A stretch of 64,000 nt of DNA. It comes from a virus. The stretch spans positions 1 through 64,000 of the IMG/VR virus record IMGVR_UViG_3300049491_000419. One strand, 5' to 3'. The position numbers and the translations under genes are program-made. The notes under the pieces were generated by a model. It ran no database searches. It was not told the DNA's origin and saw only the letters and a list, made by a program, of their open reading frames with translations. Below, in pieces: positions 4,493 through 49,866 of this stretch. The stretch's first letter is position 1; each line of letters begins with the position of its first letter.

Positions 4493-4755
4493 GCGACAAA
4501 ATTACAGTTTCCTTCTTTCCGCGTCACCGTGAATACACAACCGAGCAGCACGAAGAAGCCATCGTGAAGTATCGTGAATGGTTGGACGAACACGGCCGTT
4601 ACGGTAAGCTTTACATGATGAACATTGGTAAGGTGCCGAAAGATATGAAGGCTGATGGTGAAGAAGACAAGCCCACCATCCAGTCTACAATGATCGGCAT
4701 CAATATCTACGATGGAGAGATTGCGCTACTGTTCCGCATTATGTTCAACCTGTGA
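4489..4755 (+). CDS. small array-family protein
   Basis: EWLDEHG ... GEIALLFRIMFNL. Confidence 0.75.
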   Translation: MSDKITVSFFPRHREYTTEQHEEAIVKYREWLDEHGRYGKLYMMNIGKVPKDMKADGEEDKPTIQSTMIGINIYDGEIALLFRIMFNL

Positions 4756-5015
4756 TGCACTTCCAATACATTACCGAACTCTATAAAGACAATAAGGGTT
4801 CGGTTACCACAGCCCGTATTATTGGCGAATGGTTACGTGTAAATGTTGGCGAGGAAGGATCTGCCAGAGAACCTAGCAACAAATTTGACTGGGCTTGGAG
4901 CTTAACTTCGCACTCACACGGATCTGCACCAGTTGGTATATATTTTGTTCGCCCCGAAGATAAGACACGATTCAGATTAAGCTTTGGAATACGACAAGGG
5001 CGATCAGAAAGATAA
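4752..5015 (+). CDS. small array-family protein
   Basis: EWLRVNVG ... PEDKTRFRLSFGI. Confidence 0.8.
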   Translation: MMHFQYITELYKDNKGSVTTARIIGEWLRVNVGEEGSAREPSNKFDWAWSLTSHSHGSAPVGIYFVRPEDKTRFRLSFGIRQGRSER

Positions 5016-5043
5016 ATACTCTCAATTAACTTGAGGGAATGGT

Positions 5044-5289
5044 ATGAAGTCATACAGGTTGCAGGACATACTTCCAAGCTTAGAAACCGTAGATGCCTAC
5101 CTCACTTATCGTTATATAGAAGAATGGTGTCACACCAATCTATCAAAGGAGAGGTGGCGATTTGACTACTCCTCAACGATATGCGCTCATGGTGTTGATA
5201 TACCTGGTCGTATATTTTTTTGGAAGGATGAAGATGCTGTTGCCTTCCGCCTGCAATACCGTGTGATTAGTCCTGGATCATCCACTTGA
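5044..5289 (+). CDS. small array-family protein (last member)
   Basis: EWCHTN ... DEDAVAFRLQY; GATAAATA at 5011-5018 and a GAGGG RBS upstream. Confidence 0.8.
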   Translation: MKSYRLQDILPSLETVDAYLTYRYIEEWCHTNLSKERWRFDYSSTICAHGVDIPGRIFFWKDEDAVAFRLQYRVISPGSST

Positions 5290-5314
5290 CCGTGTGCTAA
5301 CATCCTAATACAAT
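5286..5314 (+). promoter_or_regulatory. sigma70-type early/middle promoter
   Basis: TTGACC-N17-TACAAT just upstream of 5339. Confidence 0.75.
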
Positions 5315-5338
5315 TGCGACACACAGACAGGACTACAC

Positions 5339-5815
5339 ATGGAACCTACTACACTTATTCTGGTGCTTTCTATCCCTGCATTGATTGCGGGTGTGGCGTT
5401 GGCAGTACAAAATCGCAAGGCAACTGATACACATATCATTGATGCTGCTCGCGAACGTGCGAAGCAACGGACCCATGAACGTGCCTTTGCCGATACCGAA
5501 CCCGAAGACGACCCTTATCGCACCGGCCTTAACTTTGTTATGGAGTCTGGTGTGGCAGTTACCGAGGATGCATTCACCAGTCACGGGCAACCATTGTCGG
5601 CTGAGCAAGCTCACACCATTGGGATGATCTTTGAGGGTTACCGCCCCGAGGTGAAGCATCGTGCCTCCAACAGTCTTGGTAAGACTCCAATGATGGCTGC
5701 TGGTGTTCCGTTGAACCTTACCGCTCTGGACAGCCGTAATAGCGTGTTGTCGGATTTGAGCGGTCCGGAATACCTGGCACCCGAAGTTGTTTGGCCGGAT
5801 CATATCCGTGGCTAA
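5339..5815 (+). CDS. hypothetical protein with N-terminal membrane anchor
   Basis: Hydrophobic residues 6-22; promoter and AGGA RBS upstream. Confidence 0.7.
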   Translation: MEPTTLILVLSIPALIAGVALAVQNRKATDTHIIDAARERAKQRTHERAFADTEPEDDPYRTGLNFVMESGVAVTEDAFTSHGQPLSAEQAHTIGMIFEGYRPEVKHRASNSLGKTPMMAAGVPLNLTALDSRNSVLSDLSGPEYLAPEVVWPDHIRG

Positions 5816-24200: not shown

Positions 24201-27200
24201 CGGCGGAACATCACTCTGTACCCATTCGTAGATATCAATAGTCGAACCCGGGAAGATTTGCGCCCAGCGGTCACGCCTGTAAACTAAGTTATCAACTTCC
24301 GTTTCGCTGCCATCAAGGGCAATAGGTTGTTCGTAATAAACAAATCTTGTGCTTGATAGATCCCACCATAGTTGTCCAACCTGGGCTACACCGAATGTAA
24401 TATTTTCACTAAACAATCTTGTATCACCGGAGACATTGTATCTTGCTGGATCCTGTAAAGATAGATATTTCAGATTCTGTTTTGCAGGTCCCGGTAGAAT
24501 GAACTTGAATGGATCATAGATTGGCAACTGAACTAATTCAGTTCCAGCAGTGTTGAACACACTAGCACTTTCAAATAGGTGCGTGTTGATTAATGGCTCT
24601 TGTACTCTAAACGGATTCAAATATAATGGTCCGGTAACGTCCCAACCATAATTTGGACTCCAGAAATCAATAATCTCTGGATCCCATATTGCAATGTCCC
24701 AGAAACCAGGATCAGCCTGAATATTAAATACTGTCCATTTTTCATCAACATCGTCGATCCAGATGTTATCACCAATGCCAACATATGTTGGTAGATATGG
24801 TTCAGCAGGAACATTGTGCCAACGCATTATCTTGAACAGAAGTAATGTATTAAGATCTTCATAGTTGGCCATATCTGTAGCAGCAATTGGATTGCCATCA
24901 ACAGTGACTAATGAGTATGCATTATAATTAACCAAGTCGGTTGGGTTTAGATATAGACCGGGAACAGCATAATCTTCTGTTGAGTATGGAATAAATCCCA
25001 CAGTTTGATTATTATCGCCAATAATAACATTATCTGTTACTTGTTGTAGAACAAGAAGATTTCCGAAATCATTTCGGTTACTACCAATTGCCTCAGTCCA
25101 TAATTGCGGAACAATTGTTACATTATCAGCCGGTACCAATGAATAGTTTGTTAATAGGAGCAGATTGCCAGCTTCATCAGTAACTACTTTCCATGTTAAT
25201 GGATCCATAGGTGCCGGCATGATATTCATTAACTTATAAACACACCAATCTTCGGTGAATGTTTTAGCGACCCAGATTGTGTCAAACATACCTGGATTAA
25301 GGGCAACAGATCCCCATAATGCTATTGTCTGAGTAACATCAAACACGCTGAAATCGACATCGTTGAAATTTACATAACCGGCATTAGGAATTGGATAATC
25401 TATAATGTTTGTTAATGGGAATTCGAGTGCAACAGACGGGTCCGTAGGACGAACTACCCACACATCTGTTTCATCAATGTCAATGTTGACAATGTTGTCG
25501 AGTGTAGGATCACTAATGATTTCACCCTGCCATACACTGTAAAGCTTGTCAAGGTTATGCGGTTCGGCACCAGAGTCAATGCTTACAAGAGGTGCCTCTA
25601 GGTAACCGATGCCCGGGTCTGTAATGTCAACACGTGAAATTCTATTTGTTGAATCTAGTACAACATAGGCACGGCAAATTCTCGTTGCGAGAACCACAGT
25701 CCAGTTAGCAGCAATAAATGCAGTTGATGATTGTGTCCAGCCAATTGGAGTAACACCAATTGTAATTGGTGGTTGTGTTGTTTGTACCCATGTAGTATCA
25801 GTACCCAACAACCCCTCTTGTACAAAAGCAGTCAGCCCAGTAAGTTCAAGACTTGTATCAGCATATAGAGAGCGTGTCCAGGCACCTGCACGAACAACAT
25901 AAATGCCATTCTGTGATTGTGTTGTTTGATTCTTAACAAGAACGCGATCACCCACAACAACTGCAACACCGTCGATAACCTGTGGGCCAGCCAGAACAAT
26001 GTTTGCTGTAGTTGCTGCACGAACAGTTATCTGAAGTACATTGCTAGAATAGTAAACTGGATTTCCAAATTGATCTGGATACTTTACAACGTTTCCAACT
26101 TGGTAAGTTAGTTCTGAAGAGAAGTCCGACCATGCAACATCTGGTTCAGCATCCGGTAACGGGAATACCAATTTCGGAATGTTGATGTAAGTATTTTCAG
26201 CATTTAGAATATTAATTTGCCTTACAAAACCAATCGTTGATGGGACAAAATTCAAACGTGCAACAATAACTTCGCCAGTGTTCTGTTCCGGAATCAATCT
26301 AAACTCAGTCGATACCTGTTCAATTGTATTACCGAAGTCGCCGAGCTTAAGAGCCCATTCTTCGTATACCTTAATGATTTCGTTGCTCTGTACCTTGGTA
26401 GATCTGAACAACTTTTCAAAGGCTTGCTTTGTACCCTTCTGACGAATTGCACCTTGATAGAATAGATACTGAACATCATTGGAGACAGATAGGTTGTCGA
26501 GGTAACCCTTGCTCTCGTAACCAATTAGGTGACGACCAAGATCTTCAAGGCTCGGGTTATCAATGGTTACGTTAGGATCGTAGAAGTAACGCATGGACTC
26601 AACGATTGTGTCGTAGTTAGGAACAAGTTGATCATCGATAATCAAATATCCCGGAGCTTCCATCTTACCGTACCAGCCGTTGCTGCGGAATCCATTGAAG
26701 CGAAGACGTTGCTGTCTTGCACGCAGAAGTGGATCGTAAAGCACGTCGCTGAAATTTGTAACATTATCGAAGATCAGAATGTGTTCAGTTTCAGCTGCAT
26801 TAATCTGGATAAAGAAAATACCACCTGTTGATAGATCTGTAGGAGCAACGGAAATCATTGGTCCTTCTCTATCCGTAGATGTATTGTTTGGAGCAATTGC
26901 TACTCCAAACTTATCTAGAATACTGTATACGCCATTGGAGAGTGATTCCACATCGTTCGGGTAACCACGCTTCACAATTAGTGTCGCTGTGTTGGCAAGT
27001 GGGCTCAACTGAATGGATGCATCAGGTGCCCAGTTTGTATTCAGCCAGAACAAAAACTGTTTAGCAGAAGACAGCCAGTCATTTAGAATATTTGTATCTT
27101 GATTTACTTCAGTGAACTGCCATCCTTGCTTTTCAAGGTAGGCGCCCCATCCGATCATAAGATCGAAAACTTCTTGTGCATTCTTAAGGATAGAACCGTA

Positions 27201-30200
27201 AGGATATTTTGTAGTTGTTTCTAACGAAATTGGTTTGTAGGTAACAGTTATGCCACCCTCTGTTGGCAAGCCTTTAAGCTTCTGCCAGTCTGTAGCGATA
27301 AATTTAGAAACAGTTTGGGTTGCTAGACTTTCGTAGTATACACCGTTGTATCTAACAATTTCTCCCTGGTTGTAAGTTGCGCCAACTTCGAAGTATCTAA
27401 ACTCTGCGGGTGTGCCGCCAACAGAAACTTCAACAGTCTTTTCATTTGCTCTGTCTAGAGTGATGAATTCCGCATTGAACAAATCGTAACCGTAGACAAC
27501 AAATGTACCATCGGCTAGTGCTCGAACAATAACACCGCTGTATGAATAGGTATCGACAACCGGGCTCTTATGTAGGAATACATCAAAGTTTGTTGACGGA
27601 ATGATTAGGGTGTTGGTATTTGCACCAGGTGATACTGATGAAATATAAGTGTTGGTTGTGTCCTTGTTAATGAAACCCGCAACCTTGTTTGCAAGATTGA
27701 CATCAAGTGTTCTGATTTTCTGTCCAAAGGTGTCGGCAATATTTTTTCCTAGGAAAAGAATTCTATCACTGATCCAGCACTGATATCCAAATCTAACTTC
27801 GGTTACACTATCAACAATTTCGGCGTGAACATACTGATCCTTATTCTTTGGGCGGAACCATGCAAAGAACGGATCATCAAATGCGAATATATCATTCTGT
27901 ACATATTGCCAATTCTTGTTTGACATTACTGGGGTTGCAGATGCAGGTACAGTAATCATGCCAGGAGACAATTCGGTTCCTAGTGTGTCCCACAGAAGTT
28001 CACCAAATGGGCCTGGACGCATTAAATATAGGAATTCCTGTGCGCTGTATGCGTATGCAGAAGTAGACATCCAAGCTTGCTCAACTGGGGAACCATCGCC
28101 ATACACCCACGCATCATCGAAATGATCAAATGGTGCGTAAGGATTTCCACTGTAGGCTAGACCAAACAGTGTAATGATAGGAATAATTTCGCCGGCGCCA
28201 TCAACGGGAATCAATGAAGATAATCCCGGACGTACCCACATTTCCTGTGGTTGAACAATCTGGGTATCTGGGTTGTAAATTGCACACGGACCCTGACGGA
28301 TAATACCAGCCTCGAGATCGGTATACATGATGTGTAAGCCAGCAGAAGTTGAAGTCCACACTTCTTGGCCTGCAAGGTTTAGGACTGGAGGACCATACTC
28401 TGTCTCCCACCATTCTGGCTTTGTACTGAATCCCAACATTTCCCATGGGCGTGTATCTGGGTAATAGGTATCATAGTAATATTGGAAAATGCCTTTCCAG
28501 TTACCAGGCAAGTCAGTTTGACCACCTGTCGGAGTTACTGCGAGACGATAGTTATAAAGTTTCCACAACTGGTTAAGCGGAGTTGTCAGACTGGCAGTTG
28601 GCCAATCATTGACTCTGTAATTTGCTCTGTTCTTGGCAGACCACTTGTTTAGATATGACTCTGTAATCTCTAGATACTCATCACGTGAGTAACGAGTTTG
28701 TCTAAAGTATCCAGTCTTTACAGATTCAATACGTAGAGGAATATAGTATTCGTTACGATACTTTGTCTGCAAGAAGTTATAGATTCTTGTTTCAAGATCT
28801 AGAAGTAATTGATCTCTGTAATCACCGTAAGAAATTGTCTTTGAACCATCGTGCCCAATAACAACGTCAGTAGGAATTGCATATGTTGCGTCTAGTTCAA
28901 TTCTAGGAATATATGCACCCCACGCACCAACCTTTGTTGGTGTTGATGGAATATAGGTTGGCAACGGGTTCTTGTATAGGTAGACAAGAATATCTTTAAC
29001 ACCCACACCTAGGTTCAGCTGAATATCGATTGCAAGGTTTGTATTAACAATTTCGTAATCAACGCCAACAGTTAGAATTCGTTCTGTTGTTGGATTTGTA
29101 ACGTCGTAGAGGTATACAACATTTCGCGGATCTGTAAGGTCGACGTAGTTTGCAAGAGTAATTAATGTGTTACCCGGAACATTAAATGTTTCTGATGCAA
29201 ATGGTGTTCCTTGTGCTGCCATGAAGGAATACGCAAATGCATTTGAGAATTCCTTAGAGACATTGAGGATACGTAGGATTTCTCCAACCCATGCTGCAAT
29301 GTCAACAGTGCCAGTGAATACCTGTACAGGATCAAATCCTTGGTTGATTAATTGTAGAGCAGTTGTTAGGAACTTGTTCTTAAACTTCGTGTACTCATCG
29401 GAACTAAAGCGGACACCTTTGATAAAATCTAGATCGTCGGAAGACGATACAAGCATTGATTTTAGTGCAGGAGCAAGGTTTTGTAGAATATATAAACCGA
29501 CAGATCTATTCTTTAGGGAATCCCTGTAGTTGTTAATACCACCAAAGGATGATCCAGTAAAGCCTACTTGGTTTTCAATGATGGAGGCAAAGTGTTGAAT
29601 TAGATTACTTGCACTAATTTCAGAAACTTCAAGTTGTGTTGGGTTAGCCTCAAGCTGTTGAGGAATCTCAAAGTATCCCGGATAAGCCGGATCTAGCAAT
29701 CCTCTTGTATATGTTTGTGCCTCAACAACTGGTGGAATTGTTTGAGTTGTGGTTAACAAATTAGTTAGGTAAGCGGTAAGATCAATATAGATTCTGTTGT
29801 TTAGTTCGAAGAACTCAAACCCGCCAATTTCGTTTTTAATTTCAGTACCGTTGACATTGACGCTAATATCAGCATCAGTTTGAATTGCACCTCCACCGAG
29901 AATATAACCGTATGGTGTGACGCTTAGTCTAAAATTGAATTCGGACCCATAGCCAACAACATACTTGTCAATAACTCTTTGCTTGCTATAATTTGGGCAT
30001 GCACCGGCAGCAATAGCATCTTCGCCGAAGATAACCACATCACTGTTTAGGATTAGGCCGGTATTGAACGTGATTTGATTTGGGCCGGTTACTGTGAAGT
30101 TCTTTGTCGCACCCTCAAGTTGGTAGACGCCGTTAACAAATACTTGTAGGTATGAGTTTTCAGTTGTGCCTGCAAGTACAGGGAAGAGAGTAGTGAAGAC

Positions 30201-32348
30201 TGTCTGGCTAGAAGTTGCAACAAGGCTTGCATAGCTAGGAGGAGTTGTAACCGTCGAATATCCGACAATAACTACATCGCTGTTTAGAGCCAGGCCAGTA
30301 TTGAATGTAATCTGATTTGCACCAGTAACTGTGAAGTTCTTTGTAAGTCCTTCGACTTGGAATACACCGTTAACATACACCTGAATCTGTGTAGCTACTG
30401 TGGGAATCGCAGTGTTGAAAACTGTCTGGGCAGCTAAGGATACAAATTCTTCATAGTCAGGAATATCTGTAACAGCAGAATAATCATAGATAACCACATC
30501 GCTGCTTAATGGAACACCGACGTTAAAGGTAATCTGGCTTGCACCAGTTACTTGATAATTCTTAGTTACACCCTCTTGTTGGTAGACACCATTTACAAAT
30601 ACCTGTAGGTATGTCTTACCAGCAGCATTTGCAACTGTAGGAATGTTAGTGTTAAAAACTGTCTGGGCAGCAGTAGCGGAAAACTTTTCAAAGTTTGGAT
30701 TAATACCGTCATCGCAGCCGCAAACATCATATAGATTCCAGTTGTTGAATGTAACTTCACTGGTTGTGATATTGTAGTAATAATATCCGTCGATTGGTGT
30801 TAATACATTTCCGTTATAGGTGTATCGATTTGTTATTAGATCGTTTTGGAATACAATATCGGTTGCCTGACCAAGTGAGGTATAGACGATAGGAAACTTC
30901 AACACTGGGTCAACAGTTGCACCTGCGGTTGTGTTTACCTTGTAAGAGAAAATCTCACTACCACGGAAAGTGCTGTCTGGGTAGGTAACTGGATCATCTA
31001 ATTCAACGCCGTTGTGATCAAGCAAAACAAACAATGGAGGCTGATTTGTAGAAATTTTTTCGTTGTATGCCTCTTGCCATACACCTGCTTCATAGTACCA
31101 GGTTTGTCCGCGCTGGGCTGAATTGTATGGACCATCTTCTGCAACAAATACAATATCACCGTTAAGGGCAGGAGTAACTACAGAAGTCCATTCTGTGAAT
31201 GTAACGATACCAAATCCGTCTACGTTTGCTTCATAGATATAGCCATTTGACAAAGGATCATCAAACCAGCAAACCAAGTCCAGGTCTGCCATTTCAATGT
31301 TGTAAGTTAGATTGATTGTTGCAAGTGGCTGACCCTGGAACTGTGCAAGTGTAAGAGGTTGTGCAGCCAAGTCTGTGCCGAAGCCGAAACTAATTGTTTC
31401 TCTAAACTGTGTTCCCGATTTGTACAGAGGAATGTTAGCAACAAATTGGATGATTGGGCGCAATGCGCGTGTAGCATTTGTTGGGAATGAACTTCCGGTT
31501 GCAGCAATCGATGCATTAATGGTTTCAATATGAAACCATTTGTTAGTTCTCGACCATGCGTTTCTGTCAATTGCGCCGCGCTCAATTGTAATGTAATCTC
31601 CATTACCTGGTTGTGCTTGAACTTCCCATGTGTTCATGTCCCAGAATTCGTTTTCGATAATTCTACCAGTGGACAACTCGATTGTACCGTCCCATGGCAA
31701 GAATTCAAAGATTGTACCGGCAGTTAGGTCTGTGAACTTTTCAATTAAGTCAAAGCCAATACAACCGCCAAAGTTTTCAAGTACATGCGGATCCGAAAAT
31801 GTAGGATCATCAAGCAATGCGATTGTCATGCCCGATGTTAATGTTAGATTAGGTGGGGTTGCGGTAATAGGTGTTGTGTAAGACGACTGGCCGATAATAT
31901 CGGAAGCCAAAACACCAGTAATAGAAATTACAGGTAGGCCTTGCTCAACCCAATAGTAATTCTGATAGTTAATAAACATATCATAATCAATTGGAGGGCC
32001 AAAGCTGTAGTATTCAGATTCAAACAGTCTATCCTGATTAAGAGTGTTGCCACCGTAATATTCGATGTTCTCTAGAAGATCTTCATAGAAGAATACATTA
32101 CTCTTTGTTGTGTCTGCATCACGTGCGTATGCAGTAGCTTCAAGTTGCCACCATGTTCTATTCTTAGAAGGCTCTGGTAGGTAGAAATCAGTAATAGGAT
32201 TGTAACTACCAGGATCTCTGCGTCCCAAATAACCAGCAAGCAAGTCGCTGTCTTTCTTTGAAAAGACTTGATCGAATGTTGCATCAAAGAATTTCTTTTC
32301 AGTTACGGTTTGAAAAACCGCCGGTAGTTTCTTGATATACTGGGTCAT
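21234..32348 (-). CDS. giant (3704 aa) baseplate wedge / virion structural protein
   Basis: Follows the gp6-like gene; VKPYHTQIR motif, fibre-type inserted modules, late promoter. Confidence 0.8.
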   Translation of the reverse strand: MTQYIKKLPAVFQTVTEKKFFDATFDQVFSKKDSDLLAGYLGRRDPGSYNPITDFYLPEPSKNRTWWQLEATAYARDADTTKSNVFFYEDLLENIEYYGGNTLNQDRLFESEYYSFGPPIDYDMFINYQNYYWVEQGLPVISITGVLASDIIGQSSYTTPITATPPNLTLTSGMTIALLDDPTFSDPHVLENFGGCIGFDLIEKFTDLTAGTIFEFLPWDGTIELSTGRIIENEFWDMNTWEVQAQPGNGDYITIERGAIDRNAWSRTNKWFHIETINASIAATGSSFPTNATRALRPIIQFVANIPLYKSGTQFRETISFGFGTDLAAQPLTLAQFQGQPLATINLTYNIEMADLDLVCWFDDPLSNGYIYEANVDGFGIVTFTEWTSVVTPALNGDIVFVAEDGPYNSAQRGQTWYYEAGVWQEAYNEKISTNQPPLFVLLDHNGVELDDPVTYPDSTFRGSEIFSYKVNTTAGATVDPVLKFPIVYTSLGQATDIVFQNDLITNRYTYNGNVLTPIDGYYYYNITTSEVTFNNWNLYDVCGCDDGINPNFEKFSATAAQTVFNTNIPTVANAAGKTYLQVFVNGVYQQEGVTKNYQVTGASQITFNVGVPLSSDVVIYDYSAVTDIPDYEEFVSLAAQTVFNTAIPTVATQIQVYVNGVFQVEGLTKNFTVTGANQITFNTGLALNSDVVIVGYSTVTTPPSYASLVATSSQTVFTTLFPVLAGTTENSYLQVFVNGVYQLEGATKNFTVTGPNQITFNTGLILNSDVVIFGEDAIAAGACPNYSKQRVIDKYVVGYGSEFNFRLSVTPYGYILGGGAIQTDADISVNVNGTEIKNEIGGFEFFELNNRIYIDLTAYLTNLLTTTQTIPPVVEAQTYTRGLLDPAYPGYFEIPQQLEANPTQLEVSEISASNLIQHFASIIENQVGFTGSSFGGINNYRDSLKNRSVGLYILQNLAPALKSMLVSSSDDLDFIKGVRFSSDEYTKFKNKFLTTALQLINQGFDPVQVFTGTVDIAAWVGEILRILNVSKEFSNAFAYSFMAAQGTPFASETFNVPGNTLITLANYVDLTDPRNVVYLYDVTNPTTERILTVGVDYEIVNTNLAIDIQLNLGVGVKDILVYLYKNPLPTYIPSTPTKVGAWGAYIPRIELDATYAIPTDVVIGHDGSKTISYGDYRDQLLLDLETRIYNFLQTKYRNEYYIPLRIESVKTGYFRQTRYSRDEYLEITESYLNKWSAKNRANYRVNDWPTASLTTPLNQLWKLYNYRLAVTPTGGQTDLPGNWKGIFQYYYDTYYPDTRPWEMLGFSTKPEWWETEYGPPVLNLAGQEVWTSTSAGLHIMYTDLEAGIIRQGPCAIYNPDTQIVQPQEMWVRPGLSSLIPVDGAGEIIPIITLFGLAYSGNPYAPFDHFDDAWVYGDGSPVEQAWMSTSAYAYSAQEFLYLMRPGPFGELLWDTLGTELSPGMITVPASATPVMSNKNWQYVQNDIFAFDDPFFAWFRPKNKDQYVHAEIVDSVTEVRFGYQCWISDRILFLGKNIADTFGQKIRTLDVNLANKVAGFINKDTTNTYISSVSPGANTNTLIIPSTNFDVFLHKSPVVDTYSYSGVIVRALADGTFVVYGYDLFNAEFITLDRANEKTVEVSVGGTPAEFRYFEVGATYNQGEIVRYNGVYYESLATQTVSKFIATDWQKLKGLPTEGGITVTYKPISLETTTKYPYGSILKNAQEVFDLMIGWGAYLEKQGWQFTEVNQDTNILNDWLSSAKQFLFWLNTNWAPDASIQLSPLANTATLIVKRGYPNDVESLSNGVYSILDKFGVAIAPNNTSTDREGPMISVAPTDLSTGGIFFIQINAAETEHILIFDNVTNFSDVLYDPLLRARQQRLRFNGFRSNGWYGKMEAPGYLIIDDQLVPNYDTIVESMRYFYDPNVTIDNPSLEDLGRHLIGYESKGYLDNLSVSNDVQYLFYQGAIRQKGTKQAFEKLFRSTKVQSNEIIKVYEEWALKLGDFGNTIEQVSTEFRLIPEQNTGEVIVARLNFVPSTIGFVRQINILNAENTYINIPKLVFPLPDAEPDVAWSDFSSELTYQVGNVVKYPDQFGNPVYYSSNVLQITVRAATTANIVLAGPQVIDGVAVVVGDRVLVKNQTTQSQNGIYVVRAGAWTRSLYADTSLELTGLTAFVQEGLLGTDTTWVQTTQPPITIGVTPIGWTQSSTAFIAANWTVVLATRICRAYVVLDSTNRISRVDITDPGIGYLEAPLVSIDSGAEPHNLDKLYSVWQGEIISDPTLDNIVNIDIDETDVWVVRPTDPSVALEFPLTNIIDYPIPNAGYVNFNDVDFSVFDVTQTIALWGSVALNPGMFDTIWVAKTFTEDWCVYKLMNIMPAPMDPLTWKVVTDEAGNLLLLTNYSLVPADNVTIVPQLWTEAIGSNRNDFGNLLVLQQVTDNVIIGDNNQTVGFIPYSTEDYAVPGLYLNPTDLVNYNAYSLVTVDGNPIAATDMANYEDLNTLLLFKIMRWHNVPAEPYLPTYVGIGDNIWIDDVDEKWTVFNIQADPGFWDIAIWDPEIIDFWSPNYGWDVTGPLYLNPFRVQEPLINTHLFESASVFNTAGTELVQLPIYDPFKFILPGPAKQNLKYLSLQDPARYNVSGDTRLFSENITFGVAQVGQLWWDLSSTRFVYYEQPIALDGSETEVDNLVYRRDRWAQIFPGSTIDIYEWVQSDVPPEQYTGTGVPRDVTSYVQLETSNRFTSVTEIKYYFWVLGATDLPNVENRTLPALEVGRLLQSPKRQGFAFFSPVQQTATNNSYMFYNVQEILAYQGDNIQVQYRISERDDQEHAQWAFFREGDPNSLVTDQFWNKMVDSLCGYTKVLPVTGEFSDGIVVANFLPWDIYGWDVAPWDDATPLTSPEYGEILPVPDPTLSESEKYGITYRPRQGMFVKLYSARKIFVQAGNELLKHIPIRDNNPSWNADVATDDYWTYTNWYELGYEDAVPTVVYQTLADANIALVAGQLTKGTILQVVDGTIDGRYVLYAVVQLNPNVPTLSLNEVAIENSAIKLLDTIFTSRNKYGLSVELRELLNAFRTQVMIDAYVVDQNELFFSLLNYVVSEQKNPNWVFKSSYIFIKEDNLPLTQDQLFIPDQIGNIIDYITDVKPYHTQIRDYSSTYYTTDIAPGTASDFFKWVIKLQFGPSGAEDIDPYANSPAFDPMIGWDFHQGPYSIPWDFLAQFVGASSSGNVITISDTTGLYAGMRVAVTGGIGILDSMTFIVAVNSLTTFTVATIPLVNPPVLVPLVGASLDITMPWDITNISLIINQYISRNAVTPTYNPGFSPWPGFDENTIQVPLTFFDATKVGYSQLFPYTFDFNSINLDNPQTFITPYNIVAVKADSDTLYYGQDYYVEYNEIDENYTIYFFNDPGIYTILAVFVWLDGGPIQNSFINGYRNELAAGTATDDLVINVDTKLPVDISTGIPTPYVLYGDVWDTVPDPVAQILIDAGGDDSVPWDATLVLELFPNTISSRENTNAYDGANFTRNAFEYAGDLAIDLPAPSLLQDNIDVITVTAAADILPNPGELPGVIWINGERIEYKDKQIIAINTWELRLVRRGTMGTAPAEHLALVPEVDEVNTGPGGQTILVDPPVYVPNKVWIEKFNYIPGLPNEEVWNVDTLPGIPDLSTIQAPSVYTSVTNVPVGGLWYSYTPEANFLKSKEGKSIP
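30025..30690 (-). repeat. three tandem about 65-aa beta modules inside the giant protein
   Basis: QTVF.T...QV(F/Y)VNGV.Q.EG.TKN(Y/F).VTG.(N/S)QITFN.G..L.SDVVI x3. Confidence 0.9.
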
Positions 32349-32412: not shown

Positions 32413-35400
32413 TTAAACTCGGAGATTTTGGTCTGTCAAGTTCGCCACAATCTGAACATTGTTCACTGTAGCTGTAGACATGAAAAGTTCTGTAGGACTT
32501 GCGATGATTTCAAACAAATTACCGAACTGTGAGTTGGCATTTGTTGGGACAATAACAACTGAGCTAATAATTCTAGATAGTTGTTGGTGAATGAATGCTG
32601 ACAGTTCTGACCAGAAGAATTTTTCACCAAAGTCCCAGTTTCTAATATCAAAGTAAACATCGATTGCTTGAATAACCTTTGTCTTAACTTCGTTATCGCT
32701 AATACTGGTTGATGGTGCCTTAACGACTTTAATTGTTGCCTGCAATTCAGATGATGCTTGTGTACCAAACAGAATCTTAAATGACCCCGAATTCCAAATC
32801 ATAGAATCACTGACCATTTTATATTGATCCAGACTTTGGAACTGAATACGAAGTTCTTCGGTGGTTGGTGCTTCCGGCATTGCAGAAATGCTGCCATTAC
32901 TATTTTTCCAGATTAACATATCTCTGTAGAAACTATCAGTAATAACAACCATATCGATAATGTTTGTAGGCGACGGATCAACACGTTGATCCAATGGTGA
33001 ATAGTGTGCCCACTTGAAATACAAAGGTAATCTATCGTCATCGGGCACAGATGTATTTTGCGTGAATACCTTACCATTCTTATCAAAGTGGTATTTGTCT
33101 AGCAATGAAACAAATGTTTGTCCGGACGGATATGTTGACAGGTCTGCAGACGTTGAGCTTTCGATTCCATAATATACACCAAAGCCCGGAGGACTAATGC
33201 CGTATACTAGGAACGATTTACTTAAGAAGTATGCGGTAAGAATATCTGTCTTGTCCACAACTGTTTGAGTTCCAGCTAACCAAGGGAACAGCAATAGTTG
33301 AGATGCAATCGGTCCGTTAAAGAATGCAGTAATCTGATTAGTGATAGAACGTGTTGACGGGATCATCGAGTTGAACAATAGTTGTTCGACATTATTTACA
33401 AACACAAGATCCGGGCTATCTAGATAGACTGTTGTTGCAGGTGGTGGGTCATATTGACTTCCCGGACCAATACCGCCAGGTAGTAATACACTAGAAAGAA
33501 ATGGCGGGCTGAATAACTTTGTATTATCGATTAGGTCGACGGGGAAATAAACATACAAATCGGATTCGACGCCCTGCATAGTTGTATCCCAGTTTGCGAT
33601 CCACGGACGTGTGCTCTGATATCCTGTAACTTCATTGTCATAGAATTCAAATACAACTCTGTCCTGTGGGGAAACAATCTGATCAAATCCTGTGGGATTA
33701 TCTGGAATACCGTCCTCATTCTCATCGAGCAAAGATACTTCTACCTTTGATGTATCGACATAACCGTCGGGTTGTGTAAACACTCCGGTAATATTAAACG
33801 GAACCTGTCTACGCAAAAATACATCCTGCGGATTAAGAATGGGTGTCGGTGGTTCATTATTATCAACAAGACTGTTTGTATTTACAAACGGCATAATCTC
33901 AATGGTATCTTGCAATGCCTGCCCAGACGAATTGTCAATAACAATTTGGTTTGGCTCCCAGAAGAATCTAACATCTCTATAAGATTCAAAAACGTATACA
34001 CGACCGCGTGCAGTTAGGTCGAATGTTGTGATACCCAATTCATTGTTGCTCGCAATGTTTACATATAACAGACCGCCTGGTGGATAAGGTGCCCAATTAG
34101 AATAAATTTGAGCCACGCCAGCAATAAGAACTGTGGTCGGTCCAAATGGAATAATAGGTTCTTCAGAAACAGTAAATGTGGTTGGTGTAATACCGCCAGT
34201 AACGTAAACATTACCACCAAACAGACCCGGCGTTCCGTACTGAACTTGAATTGAATCTCCAACTGAAAGACCTGCGGTCGACGAGACAGTAACTATCAGA
34301 TTATTGTTTGTTGCGCCAGCTGCTGATGTATATGTCGGTGTCACTGTAGGTGGTGCATATCTAAATGGTTGATCGGATTGATCGGACAGCCCCGGGGTTG
34401 CAGTAGTTGATGTATGCCATTCGTCAATTAGCAAATCATAATACATCCAGAAAGAAATACCATCATTAATACGCTGAACAATTTCCGCAATTTCAGTTGA
34501 GTTTAGATCATTTCTAAACTTAGGATACACTTTAAGTGCTTGGAAATTAATCTGCTCTTCAACGCCCAATTCAATCGGGCCCACGTTTGCATAAGGATTT
34601 AACGGGTTAATAATTAAAGGAATACCGTTCTGAATTACACTTCGAACTGCAGAGGTATTGATTGTGATCGGACTTAATGGATTACCAATTTCAATAACAG
34701 ATCCACCTGTGATAAATTCCCAAGGCTGATATAGGCTTGTGTTGAGAGAATTTGGGTTATTTGAAGTTAAGGTATTAACAAGTGCCACTGCGGTAGTTGA
34801 CACTGTTGAATTAGTAAAGAAGCCTGTATCGTTTTTAAACTTTTGTGGACTTGTTTTCCAAATCAATGGAAGTTGATAAGGATTACCGATATTCAACAGT
34901 GAGTACCCTGAAGCACCAAGAACCTGCTTGTTGACACGAATTGTACTTTCAAACTGTGGCAAATATTCATCGTAAAAGAATTGAGATACTTGCTGATCTC
35001 TTAACATTTCTTGAATAGTGTTAATCAAGATGTTTTCAATGGTCCCGGAGTTTGATGAATCTTCGATAACCTCAACAAGCACGTTTTGATTATCGCGATA
35101 CAACGCACCGTCTTCGCCAAAGATGATTAGGTCACGGTGGAAACCAGTTGGGTCGTTAAGATCGATGTAACGGCTTTGACCACTGTATGTTCTGTCGAGT
35201 GCTTGAATCTTAGCAATTTGATTTCCGAATACAAGTGGTAGGACGTTATAGTCGCTTCCGTTGACCATGCGCGACTGTGTTGAAAAGACTTCTGGGGCAC
35301 GTAATCTAATCTGTTCGTCTGTTTCTGCGGCCGCAGCATTACCGATTGTTTGCTCGAGGTTGAACACAATACGCAATACATATTCTTGTTGGTCTACACC

Positions 35401-36558
35401 AATGTAAGGGATGTTGATTTGTAATCCTTGTGCATCATCGGGACGAATTACAAGTGCTTGATTTGCGCTAACACGAACCCAGAATCTAAACAAGCCAGTC
35501 GGCACATTACCGAAGTTACCATCAGCAAAGCGAACTGATACTGTATTATTTGCACCGGAGATAACATCAAAAATGTTTCTTTCAGCAAACTGAATACTGT
35601 TGTAAATGATATTCTCACCCGACAATGCAGGTACCTTCAACCACTTGTTGACAACAGTACCGTCATCAGTTGTTTCCTGCACATAGACGTCTTCCTGGTT
35701 GATGTTTTGGATATCAATTGGGAATACACGGTTAGGTACAGGGAATTCAAAGTTGGTATCAATGTTAATCAGATTACCTTGTTTGAAGTATAGGAAGAAG
35801 CCAGTATTTGCAGATGCAACACCTAAGCTATCATTTCGATAGATGAAATTAAATGCATCAGCAGGGTCTGGATCGCGTTCGAAGATTGTTTCATTTGTAA
35901 CAAAATCCGGGTTGCAAACGTCAATTGGATATTCTTGTCCGCTAATGATAACTGATGTAGGATATGTAACGTTCAGACGCGGGATGCTGTTTAGCTGATA
36001 TAGGTCGGTCGGAATTGAGCCAATTGTGCCACTCTTTGTTGGGCGCCCAAACGGGTTAAGCGTACTAAATGCGGCATTGCAAACTTGCACAAATTGATCG
36101 AACCAATCAGGATTGTTTGGATCATTCCAGAAGATAGCAGTGTCGTTAATGTTTACGCCATTGGCATCTGTTAGTGGCTGGTTAGTTTGAACTGCGGCGA
36201 TCTTAAATAAACCGCTTGATGGAATATTTCTACGTGGAACATAGTTAACCATCTGTGCAAGACGTATAATACTTTCACGACGTTCGGCTGTGTCAATAAA
36301 GTTTTCACGGCTATTAAGGTCTGTTCTAAATGCCAAGCTTGTACCAAAATACGCAAGCAATTCAATGATTGCAATAAATTCAGAACTTTCAATATAGTCG
36401 TTGAAGTCTTCTGGGTAGTAAGTCTGAATGTAATTGATTAGGGCTTGCTTTAGAGTATCGAAGTCATAAGCAGTATAATCAATAAATTGGAAAGCTTTAA
36501 AGACCTTCTTGTAGTCTTCGGCGGCAAATAGATTCGATTGGCGAATTGATTCTGACAT
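32413..36558 (-). CDS. gp6: baseplate wedge protein (gp6-like)
   Basis: YDFDTLK..LI.YI...YPE.FNDY.ESSE, ENFIDTA, FADG.FG..P, ET.EQIR..AP, RMV...DY. Confidence 0.85.
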   Translation of the reverse strand: MSESIRQSNLFAAEDYKKVFKAFQFIDYTAYDFDTLKQALINYIQTYYPEDFNDYIESSEFIAIIELLAYFGTSLAFRTDLNSRENFIDTAERRESIIRLAQMVNYVPRRNIPSSGLFKIAAVQTNQPLTDANGVNINDTAIFWNDPNNPDWFDQFVQVCNAAFSTLNPFGRPTKSGTIGSIPTDLYQLNSIPRLNVTYPTSVIISGQEYPIDVCNPDFVTNETIFERDPDPADAFNFIYRNDSLGVASANTGFFLYFKQGNLINIDTNFEFPVPNRVFPIDIQNINQEDVYVQETTDDGTVVNKWLKVPALSGENIIYNSIQFAERNIFDVISGANNTVSVRFADGNFGNVPTGLFRFWVRVSANQALVIRPDDAQGLQINIPYIGVDQQEYVLRIVFNLEQTIGNAAAAETDEQIRLRAPEVFSTQSRMVNGSDYNVLPLVFGNQIAKIQALDRTYSGQSRYIDLNDPTGFHRDLIIFGEDGALYRDNQNVLVEVIEDSSNSGTIENILINTIQEMLRDQQVSQFFYDEYLPQFESTIRVNKQVLGASGYSLLNIGNPYQLPLIWKTSPQKFKNDTGFFTNSTVSTTAVALVNTLTSNNPNSLNTSLYQPWEFITGGSVIEIGNPLSPITINTSAVRSVIQNGIPLIINPLNPYANVGPIELGVEEQINFQALKVYPKFRNDLNSTEIAEIVQRINDGISFWMYYDLLIDEWHTSTTATPGLSDQSDQPFRYAPPTVTPTYTSAAGATNNNLIVTVSSTAGLSVGDSIQVQYGTPGLFGGNVYVTGGITPTTFTVSEEPIIPFGPTTVLIAGVAQIYSNWAPYPPGGLLYVNIASNNELGITTFDLTARGRVYVFESYRDVRFFWEPNQIVIDNSSGQALQDTIEIMPFVNTNSLVDNNEPPTPILNPQDVFLRRQVPFNITGVFTQPDGYVDTSKVEVSLLDENEDGIPDNPTGFDQIVSPQDRVVFEFYDNEVTGYQSTRPWIANWDTTMQGVESDLYVYFPVDLIDNTKLFSPPFLSSVLLPGGIGPGSQYDPPPATTVYLDSPDLVFVNNVEQLLFNSMIPSTRSITNQITAFFNGPIASQLLLFPWLAGTQTVVDKTDILTAYFLSKSFLVYGISPPGFGVYYGIESSTSADLSTYPSGQTFVSLLDKYHFDKNGKVFTQNTSVPDDDRLPLYFKWAHYSPLDQRVDPSPTNIIDMVVITDSFYRDMLIWKNSNGSISAMPEAPTTEELRIQFQSLDQYKMVSDSMIWNSGSFKILFGTQASSELQATIKVVKAPSTSISDNEVKTKVIQAIDVYFDIRNWDFGEKFFWSELSAFIHQQLSRIISSVVIVPTNANSQFGNLFEIIASPTELFMSTATVNNVQIVANLTDQNLRV

Positions 36559-46918: not shown

Positions 46919-47629
46919 ATGGCTACACAAGATGGAAATATTGCATATGATATGTTATTTGTTGATGAATTTTATCATCACGCATATCCCGATGGCACTG
47001 ATGAACATAAAAGTTTCTATGTAGATACAGTTCTTCGCGGTGAAATACAAATATCTACATTCATTGAAAATGCCATTGCAAAGGCTGGTGGCCTTGAAAG
47101 AAACAGTAAGTTTGCAATGGATTTAGATGATGGTTCGGAGGTTAAGAGCGCTGTAAGCTCATACAGAAACAATCACGTTATTAAGGGTCAATGGATGCAT
47201 ACTTATGAAATAAGTAATGTTCATACAAAGACCGGACCATTAAGAATTGTTGGGTATAACAAGATTATCAAAAAGTTTGAGTTTTATTTTATACCTAATT
47301 CTGCATTTTCACATCTAAAGGGAGTTCTAACACTGCCGATAGAAACATATAGTGGATATTATGCATCATTGGGTATGTCTCCAACTTTTACAGGGGTTCG
47401 AACTAGCGATAGCAAATGGCATCAATATCAAGTGGCTGATTTTATCACAATGTGCAAGATGCGAGCACCGACTCCACCGAATATTTCTTTACCAGTTGTT
47501 GATTCTGACATTTTGACCAAAAATGATCCCATTCCACAAAACGCCATCCCTTATAGTCAATACATCGAGTGGTTAAAAACTCGAGATTCTCAGGAAACAC
47601 CACCCACTGACCCTTGCGTGATATCTTAA
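46919..47629 (+). CDS. hypothetical protein, possible PD-(D/E)xK nuclease
   Basis: E...AK....D..DGSEVK motif, FYFIP; AAGGA RBS. Confidence 0.5.
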   Translation: MATQDGNIAYDMLFVDEFYHHAYPDGTDEHKSFYVDTVLRGEIQISTFIENAIAKAGGLERNSKFAMDLDDGSEVKSAVSSYRNNHVIKGQWMHTYEISNVHTKTGPLRIVGYNKIIKKFEFYFIPNSAFSHLKGVLTLPIETYSGYYASLGMSPTFTGVRTSDSKWHQYQVADFITMCKMRAPTPPNISLPVVDSDILTKNDPIPQNAIPYSQYIEWLKTRDSQETPPTDPCVIS

Positions 47630-47969
47630 TGAGAATAAGATTTAGATCACCCTCATCCTCGACTTCCTTTTGCTGTGCAATCCAGGAGTCGAGGATTTTC
47701 ACATCCGCATACCAGAGTTGATGAAACGGAAAATCAGCATAGGATTTACATTCTATGTTCCAATGCTTCCATGCCTCTGGTGGATGAATATCACCCTTCT
47801 TACCTTGTAGCTGTGCTGAGTCGATTTGAGATTTGCGGAATGTATTCTTCCCGCCAACAAAGGCGCCCGATGATGGAATACGAAGAAACGATTCTGAATA
47901 GGTCTCACTAAGAAACTTAGCTACTTCTAGTTCCCACGCATTACCTTTAGCTTTACTTTTTGATGGCAT
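47445..47969 (-). CDS. Holliday junction resolvase-like nuclease (Hjc/PD-(D/E)xK)
   Basis: SKAKG..WE..VA..L, R.PSSGA, GDI, IECK. Confidence 0.8.
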   Translation of the reverse strand: MPSKSKAKGNAWELEVAKFLSETYSESFLRIPSSGAFVGGKNTFRKSQIDSAQLQGKKGDIHPPEAWKHWNIECKSYADFPFHQLWYADVKILDSWIAQQKEVEDEGDLNLILIKISRKGQWVVFPENLEFLTTRCIDYKGWRFVEWDHFWSKCQNQQLVKKYSVESVLASCTL

Positions 47970-48032
47970 TATAACCCCTGTTTTCATTATTTACCACCAC
48001 TTGATAAATATAGAAAATTAATAGGAGGACAC

Positions 48033-48617
48033 ATGTTCCCAGTATCATTTGAAAAAGCTATTGATCATGCCATGCTTTACGAAGTAGGCGGATTTTGGAA
48101 GCTTACACCAGACGTAAGAGCAGGACTTATCGACACACCAGCACAAAGAAAAGCGGTAGGTTATGTCGATGATCCACTTGACCGTGGTGGTGAGACAAAA
48201 TTCGGTGTCGCTAAGAATGCTAATCCAGACCTCGATATTACAAATCTTGATTGGGAAACCGCTGAGGCTGTATATTATGACCGTTATTGGGTTGCAGGTG
48301 CTTGCGGCAGTTTGCCACCGCGAGTTGCCGTTCTACACTTTGACGGCTGTGTTAATCACGGCATTAGTAGAGCTAAGAAATTCTTGCAGGGTGCAGTTGG
48401 TGCTGAACAAGACGGAATTGTCGGGAGACAAACTCTAGCAGCAGTTTCCGCTATGGACCCAATTGCTGTATGTGAAAGTATCTGCTTACAACGTGCAAAA
48501 TTCTACCGTGACATTGTCGCAGCTAAACCAGCTCAAGAAAGATTCTTAAAGGGTTGGTTGCGTAGAATTGACGAAATGCATATCTTTACAACAGATCCAT
48601 CAGTCACTTTTGAGTAA
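48033..48617 (+). CDS. endolysin, glycoside hydrolase family 108 with peptidoglycan-binding C-terminus
   Basis: DP.DRGGETKFG, FD..VNHG, DG.VG..T, FLKGWL.R; late promoter and GGAGG RBS. Confidence 0.9.
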   Translation: MFPVSFEKAIDHAMLYEVGGFWKLTPDVRAGLIDTPAQRKAVGYVDDPLDRGGETKFGVAKNANPDLDITNLDWETAEAVYYDRYWVAGACGSLPPRVAVLHFDGCVNHGISRAKKFLQGAVGAEQDGIVGRQTLAAVSAMDPIAVCESICLQRAKFYRDIVAAKPAQERFLKGWLRRIDEMHIFTTDPSVTFE

Positions 48618-48621
48618 GGAA

Positions 48622-49285
48622 ACAGGGCTTTTTAGCCCTGTGTCAATATTGTCTGCCCACATGCGGCAGCGATGCTAAAATAGCTTAACAGTTCATACTG
48701 TTCAAGCAAATTTACATAGATAGCGGGACTGACGCGCCCCGTGAACGTACAAGGCCACAGCGTATAGGTTTTACACATCAAAACTACAAAGCACACAAAA
48801 CCCAAATCTTTTCTAACTCCCAAAGCAAAATTTCTTTTACACATTATAAGGTTAGCGAGCCTAGTTAATAATTTCGCCGGCGTGTCTTTCGGAAAGGAGA
48901 GCAACAGCCAGTGTCCGCTGAATGTGCAGTGGCAAGATTGTAAGAACGCCACCACTGTGGTAAGTAAGACGATCGATAAAGTTTGCAGCAAATATGTGAA
49001 AACAGGGTATGGTTTGCTGGTCGCGTAAACATTGGCTGAACGATGTTTGCATTGCGATGAGGACAGAAAGATGTTACAACATCCGGTCCCCCTTTCGGAA
49101 CGCTTAATAGCGTGTAGTTGACATAATCAATCCAACACTACAGAAATATTCCGATTCAGAGTCTGGTGACGCTGTCAAGTGTTCCCTATCTAAGGTTTTA
49201 GATACCCTTGGTCTGACTCCTCCGTCAAACTTATCTCTTCTACTGTAGTTTGAGCGAAGCGGCTAAGCCAGAACGAAAAACGAGC
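48622..49285 (+). ncRNA. candidate large structured non-coding RNA (or structured DNA element)
   Basis: About 670 bp with no credible ORF between convergent genes; more than ten stems; G-U pairs favour the + strand. Confidence 0.5.
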
Positions 49286-49290
49286 GTAGT

Positions 49291-49866
49291 TTACGAAGCG
49301 AGTGTTTCGTGAGTGGCGCGGTCTGTAAGACCGACAGCAGTGACATCGCTCTTCTTGTAAATGCGTTTTGCGAGTTTAACCACTTCTTGATTCGCTTCTA
49401 AGCTAATGTCTACATGTGGTCTCAACTGTATACGAAATATTTCGTTTGAATACGTTTCGACACCCACGACTCCTGTGAACTTCTGGAAATACAATGTCAC
49501 AAATGCGCTAAGACGCAACTCCACCTCTCCGATCAGTGATGGTAGTTCTTCCTTCGTTACAGGATCAATGTGACGCATGAGTTTAATCTCGCCTTTTGTG
49601 ATGTACATCTCAGTGAACATGTGACGACCTTCTGACTTTTTCATGTAGATGTAACCAGGTTGTCGAACCAATGTCTTTCTGGAAAATAATTCAATATTGA
49701 GTTCTCTATTAGGTAACGTGTCCACTTCATACGGACTCCACTTAATGCTTTGCGCATCAAGTAATCTTGACAGTTCATAAACCCAACGGTGCTTAGGATA
49801 ACGCTCCCAGCATTCGATATCATCCTTAGGGATGTCGAACTCTTGCGTGTCTGTTTTTCTGTGCAT
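49291..49866 (-). CDS. hypothetical protein
   Basis: 191-aa ORF with GAGG RBS. Confidence 0.75.
   Translation of the reverse strand: MHRKTDTQEFDIPKDDIECWERYPKHRWVYELSRLLDAQSIKWSPYEVDTLPNRELNIELFSRKTLVRQPGYIYMKKSEGRHMFTEMYITKGEIKLMRHIDPVTKEELPSLIGEVELRLSAFVTLYFQKFTGVVGVETYSNEIFRIQLRPHVDISLEANQEVVKLAKRIYKKSDVTAVGLTDRATHETLAS

Follow-up and report, generated by a model that had tools for sequence, protein, structure and literature searches.

The DNA analysed here, referred to below as the window, comprises the initial 64 kb of an IMG/VR virus record with a length of 91 kb. CheckV assigned this record a completeness of 24%, which implies a whole genome of ~370 kb, and relatives with terminal repeats have genomes of 363-385 kb. 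The gene content is T4-like (baseplate hub, SbcC/D-like (gp46/47-like) nuclease, RusA-like resolvase, GH108 endolysin) and, according to the identity of the SbcC-like protein, the closest cultured phages are PA5oct (55%) and Atu_ph07 (45%). This report deals with a gap at 48618-49290 of the window, hereafter the structured-RNA gap, which is flanked by two convergent genes:

48033-48617, plus strand: endolysin gene (GH108), 5' flank of the gap
49291-49866, minus strand: gene for a 191-aa protein of no known family, 3' flank of the gap

The initial annotation, made from the letters alone, described this gap as non-coding, and comparison with relatives evidenced that it is. An ORF-free gap of 547-794 nt was present at the same position in 17/17 loci retrieved by means of the 191-aa neighbour protein. 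The sole sizeable ORF within it (48632-48991, minus strand, 119 aa) is uninterrupted only in the window and contains 1-12 stops in each of 41/41 relatives; no codon periodicity was detected in this frame, the entropy per codon position being flat, and the gap gave no match to PHROG. The absence of a conserved frame argues against a missed protein gene. BLASTN identity of the gap was 68-84% over 300-690 nt in 16/17 loci, whereas the identity of the 191-aa neighbour protein in those relatives was only 51-85%. Judged by these identities, the gap is better conserved than the gene that flanks it.

A near-invariant 20-mer at 49120-39 was used as a query to collect homologues, and 40 viral and 85 metagenome stretches were retrieved. 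Filtering with an HMM left 51 unique full-length copies, and removal of pairs with ≥97% identity left 42 non-redundant homologues with a median pairwise identity of 68%. The carriers are dozens of uncultured giant phages that form one clade of ~360-385 kb. A scan of 185,579 cellular genomes with the 20-mer produced 10 hits, none of which matched the family HMM; ~17 hits were expected by chance according to our own estimate, and the 10 were discarded as chance matches. In GenBank phages there was no BLASTN match to the RNA region and no TBLASTN match to the 191-aa neighbour. The RNA was not found in PA5oct either by nhmmer or by R1, a covariance model of the 3' core that was used to locate copies in complete genomes; this is a weak result, as the initial screen passed no candidates.

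The gap encodes a plus-strand RNA of ~545 nt (~48688-49230), the transcription of which is inferred. It is laid out as a leader (5' hairpin, H-type pseudoknot and G-poor linker) followed by a core of ~385 nt (~48849-49229) with a small pseudoknot, seven hairpin domains and a three-way junction that bears the invariant 20-mer. From 5' to 3', the following features were distinguished:

48622-48641, plus strand: terminator hairpin of the endolysin gene, outside the RNA; its arms differ among relatives yet stay complementary
48642-48683, plus strand: promoter-like element; the blocks GTCAAnATTGT (48642-52) and GCTAAAATAG (48674-83) are conserved, the spacer is variable
48687-48702, plus strand: 5'-terminal hairpin (48687-91/48698-702), 96% paired, 3/5 pairs changed on both sides
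48723-48763, plus strand: leader H-type pseudoknot (48723-27/48738-42; loop 48732-35/48760-63), main family only
48773-48843, plus strand: G-poor, A/C-rich linker, two G among its 71 nt
48849-48877, plus strand: small pseudoknot at the start of the core (48849-51/48860-62; 48855-59/48873-77), common to both families
48879-48909, plus strand: hairpin domain 1 (48879-81/48907-09 around 48886-90/48897-901), from covariation and RNAalifold
48915-48932, plus strand: hairpin domain 2 (48915-20/48927-32), from covariation and RNAalifold
48936-48974, plus strand: hairpin domain 3 (48936-41/48969-74 around 48948-52/48957-61), from covariation and RNAalifold
48986-49019, plus strand: 8-bp hairpin, 98% paired, 7/8 pairs changed on both sides, G-U 55 against A-C 0
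49002-07/49206-11, plus strand: long-range pseudoknot PK2, 97% paired
49020-49058, plus strand: hairpin (49020-26/49052-58; 49027-32/49043-48), stem G-U 65 against A-C 4
49036-40/49155-59, plus strand: long-range pseudoknot PK1, loop CTGAA with TTCAG, 84% paired, one pair CG:28, UA:9
49061-49089, plus strand: variable hairpin (49061-64/49086-89; 49070-74/49079-83), from covariation
49095-49154, plus strand: three-way junction (49095-100/49149-54; 49101-04/49109-12; 49114-18/49137-41), 94%, 72% and 100% paired
49160-49179, plus strand: repeat unit 1 (blocks ~49160-67 and 49172-79), parallel co-variation with unit 2, 50 nt downstream
49187-49204, plus strand: inter-unit hairpin, 83% (82.7%) paired
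49210-49229, plus strand: repeat unit 2, parallel co-variation with unit 1; conservation ends here
49266-49318, strand undecided: co-varying hairpin across the stop codon of the 191-aa gene (49266-70/49314-18; 49273-76/49307-10), 3-6 pair types

The start of the RNA is predicted at ~48688-90, downstream of the promoter-like element. The window contains a single copy of the two-block motif (0 expected by chance), which a sigma-70 scan missed; since no other site of the window carries it, a general phage promoter was discarded. An extended -10 had been proposed at 48673-81, of which the -10-like GCTAAAATAG is conserved and the TG is not. In the leader, the helices of the H-type pseudoknot are 96-99% paired, with one pair distributed as GC:27 and AU:15 and G-U exceeding A-C by 32 to 1. 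The linker, correctly singled out in the initial annotation as A/C-rich and almost devoid of G, contains 5% G across the homologues and varies from 43 to 130 nt; it is maintained as a composition and not as a sequence, and neither the helix scan nor RNAalifold detected conserved pairing in it. Within the core, pair 48855-48877 appears as GC, AU, CG and UA, pairs 49062-88 and 49063-87 of the variable hairpin switch from GC/AU to CG/CG, and PK2 evidences compensation at the level of clades (ACAGGG/CCTTGG to GAAAGG/CCTTTC). In one clade the inter-unit hairpin is longer, with GGGTATCG paired to CGATACCC. PK1 and PK2 tie two adjacent hairpin loops to the strands located just 5' of units 1 and 2, and through this docking the 3' domain acquires a pseudo-symmetric arrangement. 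Sequence conservation stops at the end of unit 2, which is taken as the likely 3' limit of the functional RNA; a spacer of 26-129 nt with 27% GC follows, and no intrinsic terminator was found after the unit. A motif GCGAAGC is located at 49254-60.

Helices were obtained from mutual information and a helix scan and were then tested on an independent MAFFT alignment of the 42 homologues. The resulting model contains 109 pairs in 23 helices (as split by the tool), including four pseudoknot helices. Standard pairs occupied 92.0% of the cells, compared to 80.2% in shuffled alignments and at most 41.9% with slid partners; pairs changed on both sides numbered 74 (45.6 shuffled, at most 35 slid) and compensatory cells 527 (143.5 shuffled, at most 110 slid), and in none of 500 shuffles was the observed value matched on any of the three measures. 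RNAalifold, run unaided, recovered most helices, with compensatory change in 43/68 of its pairs. The folding energy gave z = -2.68 for the plus strand and -1.28 for the minus strand with only 20 shuffles, so that it is modestly unusual by itself and lends limited support to the structure that had been expected; it is the covariation that is decisive.

Based on this evidence, the proposal of the initial annotation that the gap holds a multi-domain structured RNA was supported, and most of its stems could be recognized in the model. Of the findings that were to overturn it, namely absent covariation, a folding energy like that of shuffled controls or a match in Rfam, none was obtained. Of the eight stems that had been drawn, five were exactly right, including CAGCAAA/TTTGCTG (48986-49019), the stem at 49021-49057 (here 49020-49058), GGAC..GATGT/ACATC..GTCC (49061-49089) and the three-way junction closed by TCGGAA/TTCCGA (49095-49154), all of them supported by covariation, while a sixth, TATCTAA/TTAGATA (49187-49204), is present but weaker. 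The stem at 48622-48641 is genuine and shows covariation, yet it forms the terminator of the endolysin gene and does not belong to the RNA. CAGTGG had been assigned the wrong partner, since it pairs with CCGCTG (48915-20) and not with CCACTG or CTGTGG, and TCAAACT/AGTTTGA (49225-49253) is not conserved.

The strand was deduced from wobble pairs. In five of the best-supported helices G-U outnumbered A-C by 55:0, 65:4, 44:0, 28:0 and 32:1 (224:5 in sum), indicating that the RNA is read from the plus strand, as had been anticipated from the G-U pairs of the window itself. This asymmetry bears on a reading in which the locus would be a DNA-only element (a structured origin, iterons or a protein-binding array), which, together with a missed protein gene, we regard as scarcely tenable. 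Direct repeats that co-vary in parallel, as units 1 and 2 do, are expected of iterons bound by one protein, and no strand is preferred in the hairpin at 49266-49318; with ~6 G-U and ~5 A-C cells (own tally) it is almost purely Watson-Crick, so its strand remains undecided. However, DNA hairpins or cruciforms would not yield a bias of the observed size, and compensatory changes span pseudoknots up to 200 nt apart. The G-U asymmetry excludes a purely DNA-level origin; the structured origin that had been offered as an alternative thus falls in its DNA-only form and is still possible as an RNA-primed origin, which receives some support from the parallel-co-varying repeats at the 3' boundary.

Comparison with known RNA classes was negative within the scope of the searches made. 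A cmscan of the whole window against Rfam 15 (4227 families) gave no match at gathering score, tmRNA and RNase P RNA included, and ARAGORN detected neither tRNA nor tmRNA in the 64-kb window. Even at E <= 10 no family match was obtained on 48400-49500, where the only models reported were SNORD98 (16.9 bits) and CRISPR-DR22 (15.3 bits), chance matches of ~30 nt each against a gathering score of 50. The unknown class assigned at the outset is in line with these results. No description was found in the literature; a survey of IMG/VR has produced ~8,500 candidate RNAs, and unnamed ones among these may overlap with the RNA described here (PMC10690425). In the searches made the family is uncatalogued, without a match in Rfam, GenBank phages, cellular genomes or the literature. 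It is nearly certain that a genuine, conserved structured RNA of an uncatalogued family is encoded in the gap, although no transcript has been observed.

The nearest likeness is to ROOL (RF03087) and GOLLD (RF01998), which also extend over several hundred nucleotides with many helices and pseudoknots, reside in phages or prophages, have no associated protein gene and are of unknown function. Unlike these, the gap RNA matches neither RF03087 nor RF01998, has no tRNA in its 64-kb window whereas tRNA genes are frequent neighbours there, is limited to one clade of uncultured phages of ~360-385 kb, and contains two units that co-vary in parallel as well as two paralogues per genome. With group I introns (RF00028) and GIR1 (RF01807) it shares the size of the core, the pseudoknotted core and hairpin-flanking strands tied upstream; on the other hand, it matches no covariance model, is not inside a gene and has its own promoter-like element. 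Two long-range pseudoknots are present in the gap RNA; a P7 pairing is not supported, the candidate GAGTC/GACTC not being kept in relatives.

The possibility was also considered that the models overlooked a diverged RNA of an established class (group I-like ribozyme, RNase P RNA, tmRNA, ROOL or GOLLD). The order of elements at the 3' end (upstream-tied strand, hairpin, conserved joining strand, second strand) may recall P7-P3-P8 of group I introns, and TTCAGAGTCT may resemble the group I 'R' element; the size and the phage setting are those of ROOL and GOLLD. Against this stand the absence of a match at gathering score in Rfam and of a tmRNA in ARAGORN, the loss of the P7-like GAGTC/GACTC in relatives, and the setting of the locus, which lies between convergent complete genes and after a terminator and its own promoter-like element, so that there are no exons to join. 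A missed known class is considered very improbable.

A second, paralogous family consists of the ~385-nt core only. In this diverged paralogue the pseudoknot, the hairpins, the junction with the 20-mer and both repeat units recur, but leader and promoter motif are missing. Its neighbours are an NT5C/HAD-like gene on one side and a PhoH gene on the other, the downstream gene being co-directional at some loci; the closing stem of its junction has been swapped for other complementary pairs. Both copies were found in 3/4 complete relatives of 363-385 kb, on the same strand and at a distance that divides the genome 47:53, and only one was found in the fourth. The two families have no regularly neighbouring protein gene in common. 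In the 91-kb record a weak R1 match at 87755-87867 (E = 0.29) was discarded for lack of HMM support, and as the fragment represents ~24% of the genome the lack of a second copy there is uninformative.

An odd trait of the RNA resides in its repeat units, which co-vary as direct repeats and not as a helix. Positions 49175 and 49225 were identical in 42/42 sequences and 49176 and 49226 in 41/41 (31.4 and 28.3 expected); six positions that are variable among sequences are identical between the units in 41-42/42, at least eight variants are mirrored in both, and 0 of 10,000 permutations reached the observed identity score of the units. At the four best positions, transitions between the units place G/U in unit 1 and A/C in unit 2 (36:0, 20:0, 21:1 and 5:0), and the differences follow the same direction, by eye, in the paralogue family. 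At 49160-61 and 49164 they run the opposite way, which was attributed in part to alignment shifts. Such one-way transitions mean that unit 1 could wobble-pair with the complement of unit 2, the reverse not being possible. As far as these patterns of variation allow, the most economical partner could be the complement of unit 2, that is, the template DNA strand or an antisense transcript. Mutual information revealed no complementary segment for the units within the RNA, and the 3' domain (49160-49229) is too conserved for its own pairing to be assessed by covariation. The cis partners TGAC (49214-17) and TTGAC (49117-21) were rejected as the variants of the units are not compensated in them; a DRT2-like template jump between the repeats was discarded by inference, since it would need the opposite wobble direction.

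An antisense partner would fit a regulatory RNA acting by pairing or sequestration, either antisense to the transcript of the 191-aa gene or as a sponge through the A/C-rich linker or the anti-Shine-Dalgarno-like CUCCUCC of unit 2. The locus is convergent with the 191-aa gene, a co-varying hairpin extends across the stop codon of that gene, and a read-through antisense transcript would be the exact complement of unit 2; in addition, CUCC (49217-20) is nearly invariant and the linker is kept as a composition. However, the paralogue retains both units in a different context, with co-directional downstream genes at some loci, a pseudoknotted core of ~385 nt is unnecessary for regulators of this kind, and the middle parts of the units differ, so that the CUCCUCC stretch is outside their co-varying portion. 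Altogether, a regulatory role of this type seems unlikely.

The reading that we favour is that the gap RNA is a free-standing folded RNA particle and not an element of an mRNA. It may act as a scaffold, as a ribozyme or as an RNA assembly of the ROOL/GOLLD kind, in which the fold would display units 1 and 2 side by side and both would engage the same partner, this being, from the one-way differences between the units, a nucleic acid complementary to unit 2. It is favoured because the complexity of the RNA, its invariant loops and the lack of a cis target resemble ROOL and GOLLD, for which RNA-only assemblies were evidenced by cryo-EM (PMC12286853). Taken as a whole, with the mechanism included, the statement that this is a structured RNA gene acting as a free-standing folded RNA stands about evenly poised between right and wrong; the function is unknown and no transcript has been observed. 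As a separate observation, the partner has not been identified, and the paralogue without leader and promoter motif also speaks against a free-standing RNA.

The parallel variation of the units is where this reading is challenged most directly. If both units shared a trans partner, three sequences would have to co-vary; two suffice if unit 1 pairs with the complement of unit 2, and on this point an RNA-primed R-loop origin has the advantage. According to this hypothesis, the RNA would be a pre-primer acting in cis: the fold would hold unit 1, which would pair with the template DNA at unit 2, and a persistent RNA:DNA hybrid at the 3' boundary would be processed and prime synthesis. An origin of this kind is the main rival reading and is possible, though we doubt it. 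It is equally tentative that the RNA is a self-targeting pre-primer whose pseudoknotted fold would bring unit 1 to invade the duplex at unit 2, with a stable R-loop that would start the replication of the ~370-kb genome and with the two paralogous copies as two origins about half a genome apart.

There are precedents with which such an origin can be compared. ColE1 RNA II hybridises near the origin, where a C-rich stretch of the template pairs with a G-rich segment from further upstream in the RNA. The gap RNA is likewise a folded RNA with a putative promoter located ~0.5 kb upstream of a defined boundary (compare ColE1/pMB1 RNA II), and an upstream segment of it equals the non-template DNA near its 3' end, so template pairing is possible. 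As ColE1-type pairing would demand, unit 1 is able to pair with the template at the 3' boundary; this is compatibility only, no hybrid having been shown. In contrast, there is no homology, the gap RNA is far more elaborate and has a conserved structure of tertiary type, it belongs to a phage and not to a plasmid, and neither RNase H processing, nor an antisense RNA I, nor a DNA start has evidence here; there are no replication data. The T4 origins oriF (uvsY) and oriG (gene 34) are R-loop origins made of a promoter plus an unwinding element. The present phage belongs to a T4-like lineage, and its locus offers a putative promoter and a predicted transcript that possibly stays hybridised beside an AT-rich stretch; the T4 origins, however, need no folded RNA, and no MotA-box-like sequence was evident at the locus.

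In favour of the R-loop origin, the units with their at least eight mirrored variants co-vary in parallel, the direction of their transitions is compatible with wobble pairing of unit 1 to the complement of unit 2, and with the DNA complement of unit 2 as the partner, co-variation is required of two sequences only. Right after unit 2 the conserved sequence gives way to a variable spacer of 27% GC, beyond which the nearly Watson-Crick-only hairpin and the GCGAAGC motif are located; the distance from promoter to boundary is ~540 nt, in three complete genomes the two copies share a strand and a 47:53 spacing, and genes for recombination nucleases (RusA-like, SbcC/D-like) are nearby. Conversely, at least 20 helices and invariant loops exceed the structure of any known pre-primer, and the genes converge on the locus instead of diverging from it. 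One complete genome has a single copy, and the 47:53 spacing was inherited once and does not represent three independent cases; a spacing as even as this has a chance of ~0.06. The cumulative GC skew of a complete 385-kb relative has no extremum at either copy; it is monotonic and tracks gene orientation, and GC skew is a weak test in phages. Finally, the wobble direction rests on ~5 positions, some of which are fixed differences.

To our knowledge, few natural classes of RNA above 300 nt with complex conserved folds are known, and those examined to date have all proved to be ribozymes, ribonucleoprotein cores or unexpected RNA-only assemblies. The gap RNA comes from a clade of giant phages that is uncultured. 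Its >100 pairs with covariation support, its four pseudoknot helices, its invariant loops and the presence of two paralogues per genome make it a strong candidate for structure determination as well as for a new function in phage biology. Repeats that co-vary in parallel are a rare signal and lead to a testable idea, namely that the RNA pairs with the DNA of its own gene and possibly primes replication. As far as we know, the origins of jumbo phages are essentially unmapped; if the pre-primer hypothesis were true, no earlier phage origin would be known that is specified by a conserved RNA with tertiary structure, and the parallel co-variation would reveal RNA:DNA pairing. Regarding the fold itself, positions 48891 and 48896 in hairpin domain 1 co-vary as G..G or A..A, a non-canonical combination.

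The structured RNA of the window (~48688-49230, + strand) appears in altered form at the equivalent locus of one relative, L012 (IMGVR_UViG_3300012964_000021, positions 4574-5367), in which everything from the promoter-like element through the 5' hairpin to the leader pseudoknot is retained, as is the 3' flank, but the core has been exchanged for a different middle of ~530 nt. This middle segment was matched neither by the HMM of the main family, to which the window RNA belongs, nor by that of the second family, the core-only paralogue. The arrangement suggests a modular leader fused to another, unknown RNA.

Copy number was examined in G003, a complete relative genome of 362,810 bp, which carries the main-family copy only. 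The second family was not found in this genome even when 3 mismatches were tolerated in the near-invariant 20-mer of the core (49120-39 in the window), and since it is absent there, the paralogue is dispensable in at least one lineage. In Pseudomonas phage PA5oct, the nearest cultured jumbo phage, the syntenic stretch (L183:12000-13530; 75.7-77.2 kb of the record) spans ~1.4 kb in which the sole annotation consists of four ORFs of 117-153 nt. Neither a match to Rfam nor similarity to the window RNA was detected in this stretch, and it may hide an unannotated RNA. Transcriptome data for PA5oct have reportedly been published.

Within the RNA and in the region 3' of it, the following features were recorded (window coordinates):

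48891/48896, covarying purines in the hexaloop of the hairpin 48886-48901
49254-60, GCGAAGC motif
49266-49318, covarying hairpin, almost purely Watson-Crick, enclosing the 191-aa gene's stop codon
49320-32, conserved hairpin GGTCT-GTA-AGACC within the coding region of the 191-aa gene

The two hexaloop positions covary as G..G or A..A, with canonical pairs in 0 of 42 cases and a mutual-information rank of 14, and this looks like a conserved non-Watson-Crick contact between purines. Downstream of the RNA, the GGTCTG of repeat unit 2 (49210-29, the likely 3' boundary) recurs in an arm of the hairpin at 49320-32. Among the metagenome loci L026/L064, L136 and L118, two contigs stop ~5-10 nt past repeat unit 2 and the third locus ends ~30 nt past it, these distances being estimates from motif coordinates. 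Such ends could mean that assembly broke off at the AT-rich spacer or that the DNA itself physically ends there; for L118, the locus end was possibly cut in the stored data and is not necessarily the true end of the contig.

Elsewhere in the window, the tail/baseplate block includes two giant ORFs on the minus strand, of 3704 aa (21234-32348) and 1381 aa (32413-36558). The RusA-like resolvase ORF (47445-47987, minus strand) overlaps the 3' end of a 236-aa ORF (46919-47629, plus strand) by ~185 nt, and the start of one of the pair was probably miscalled.
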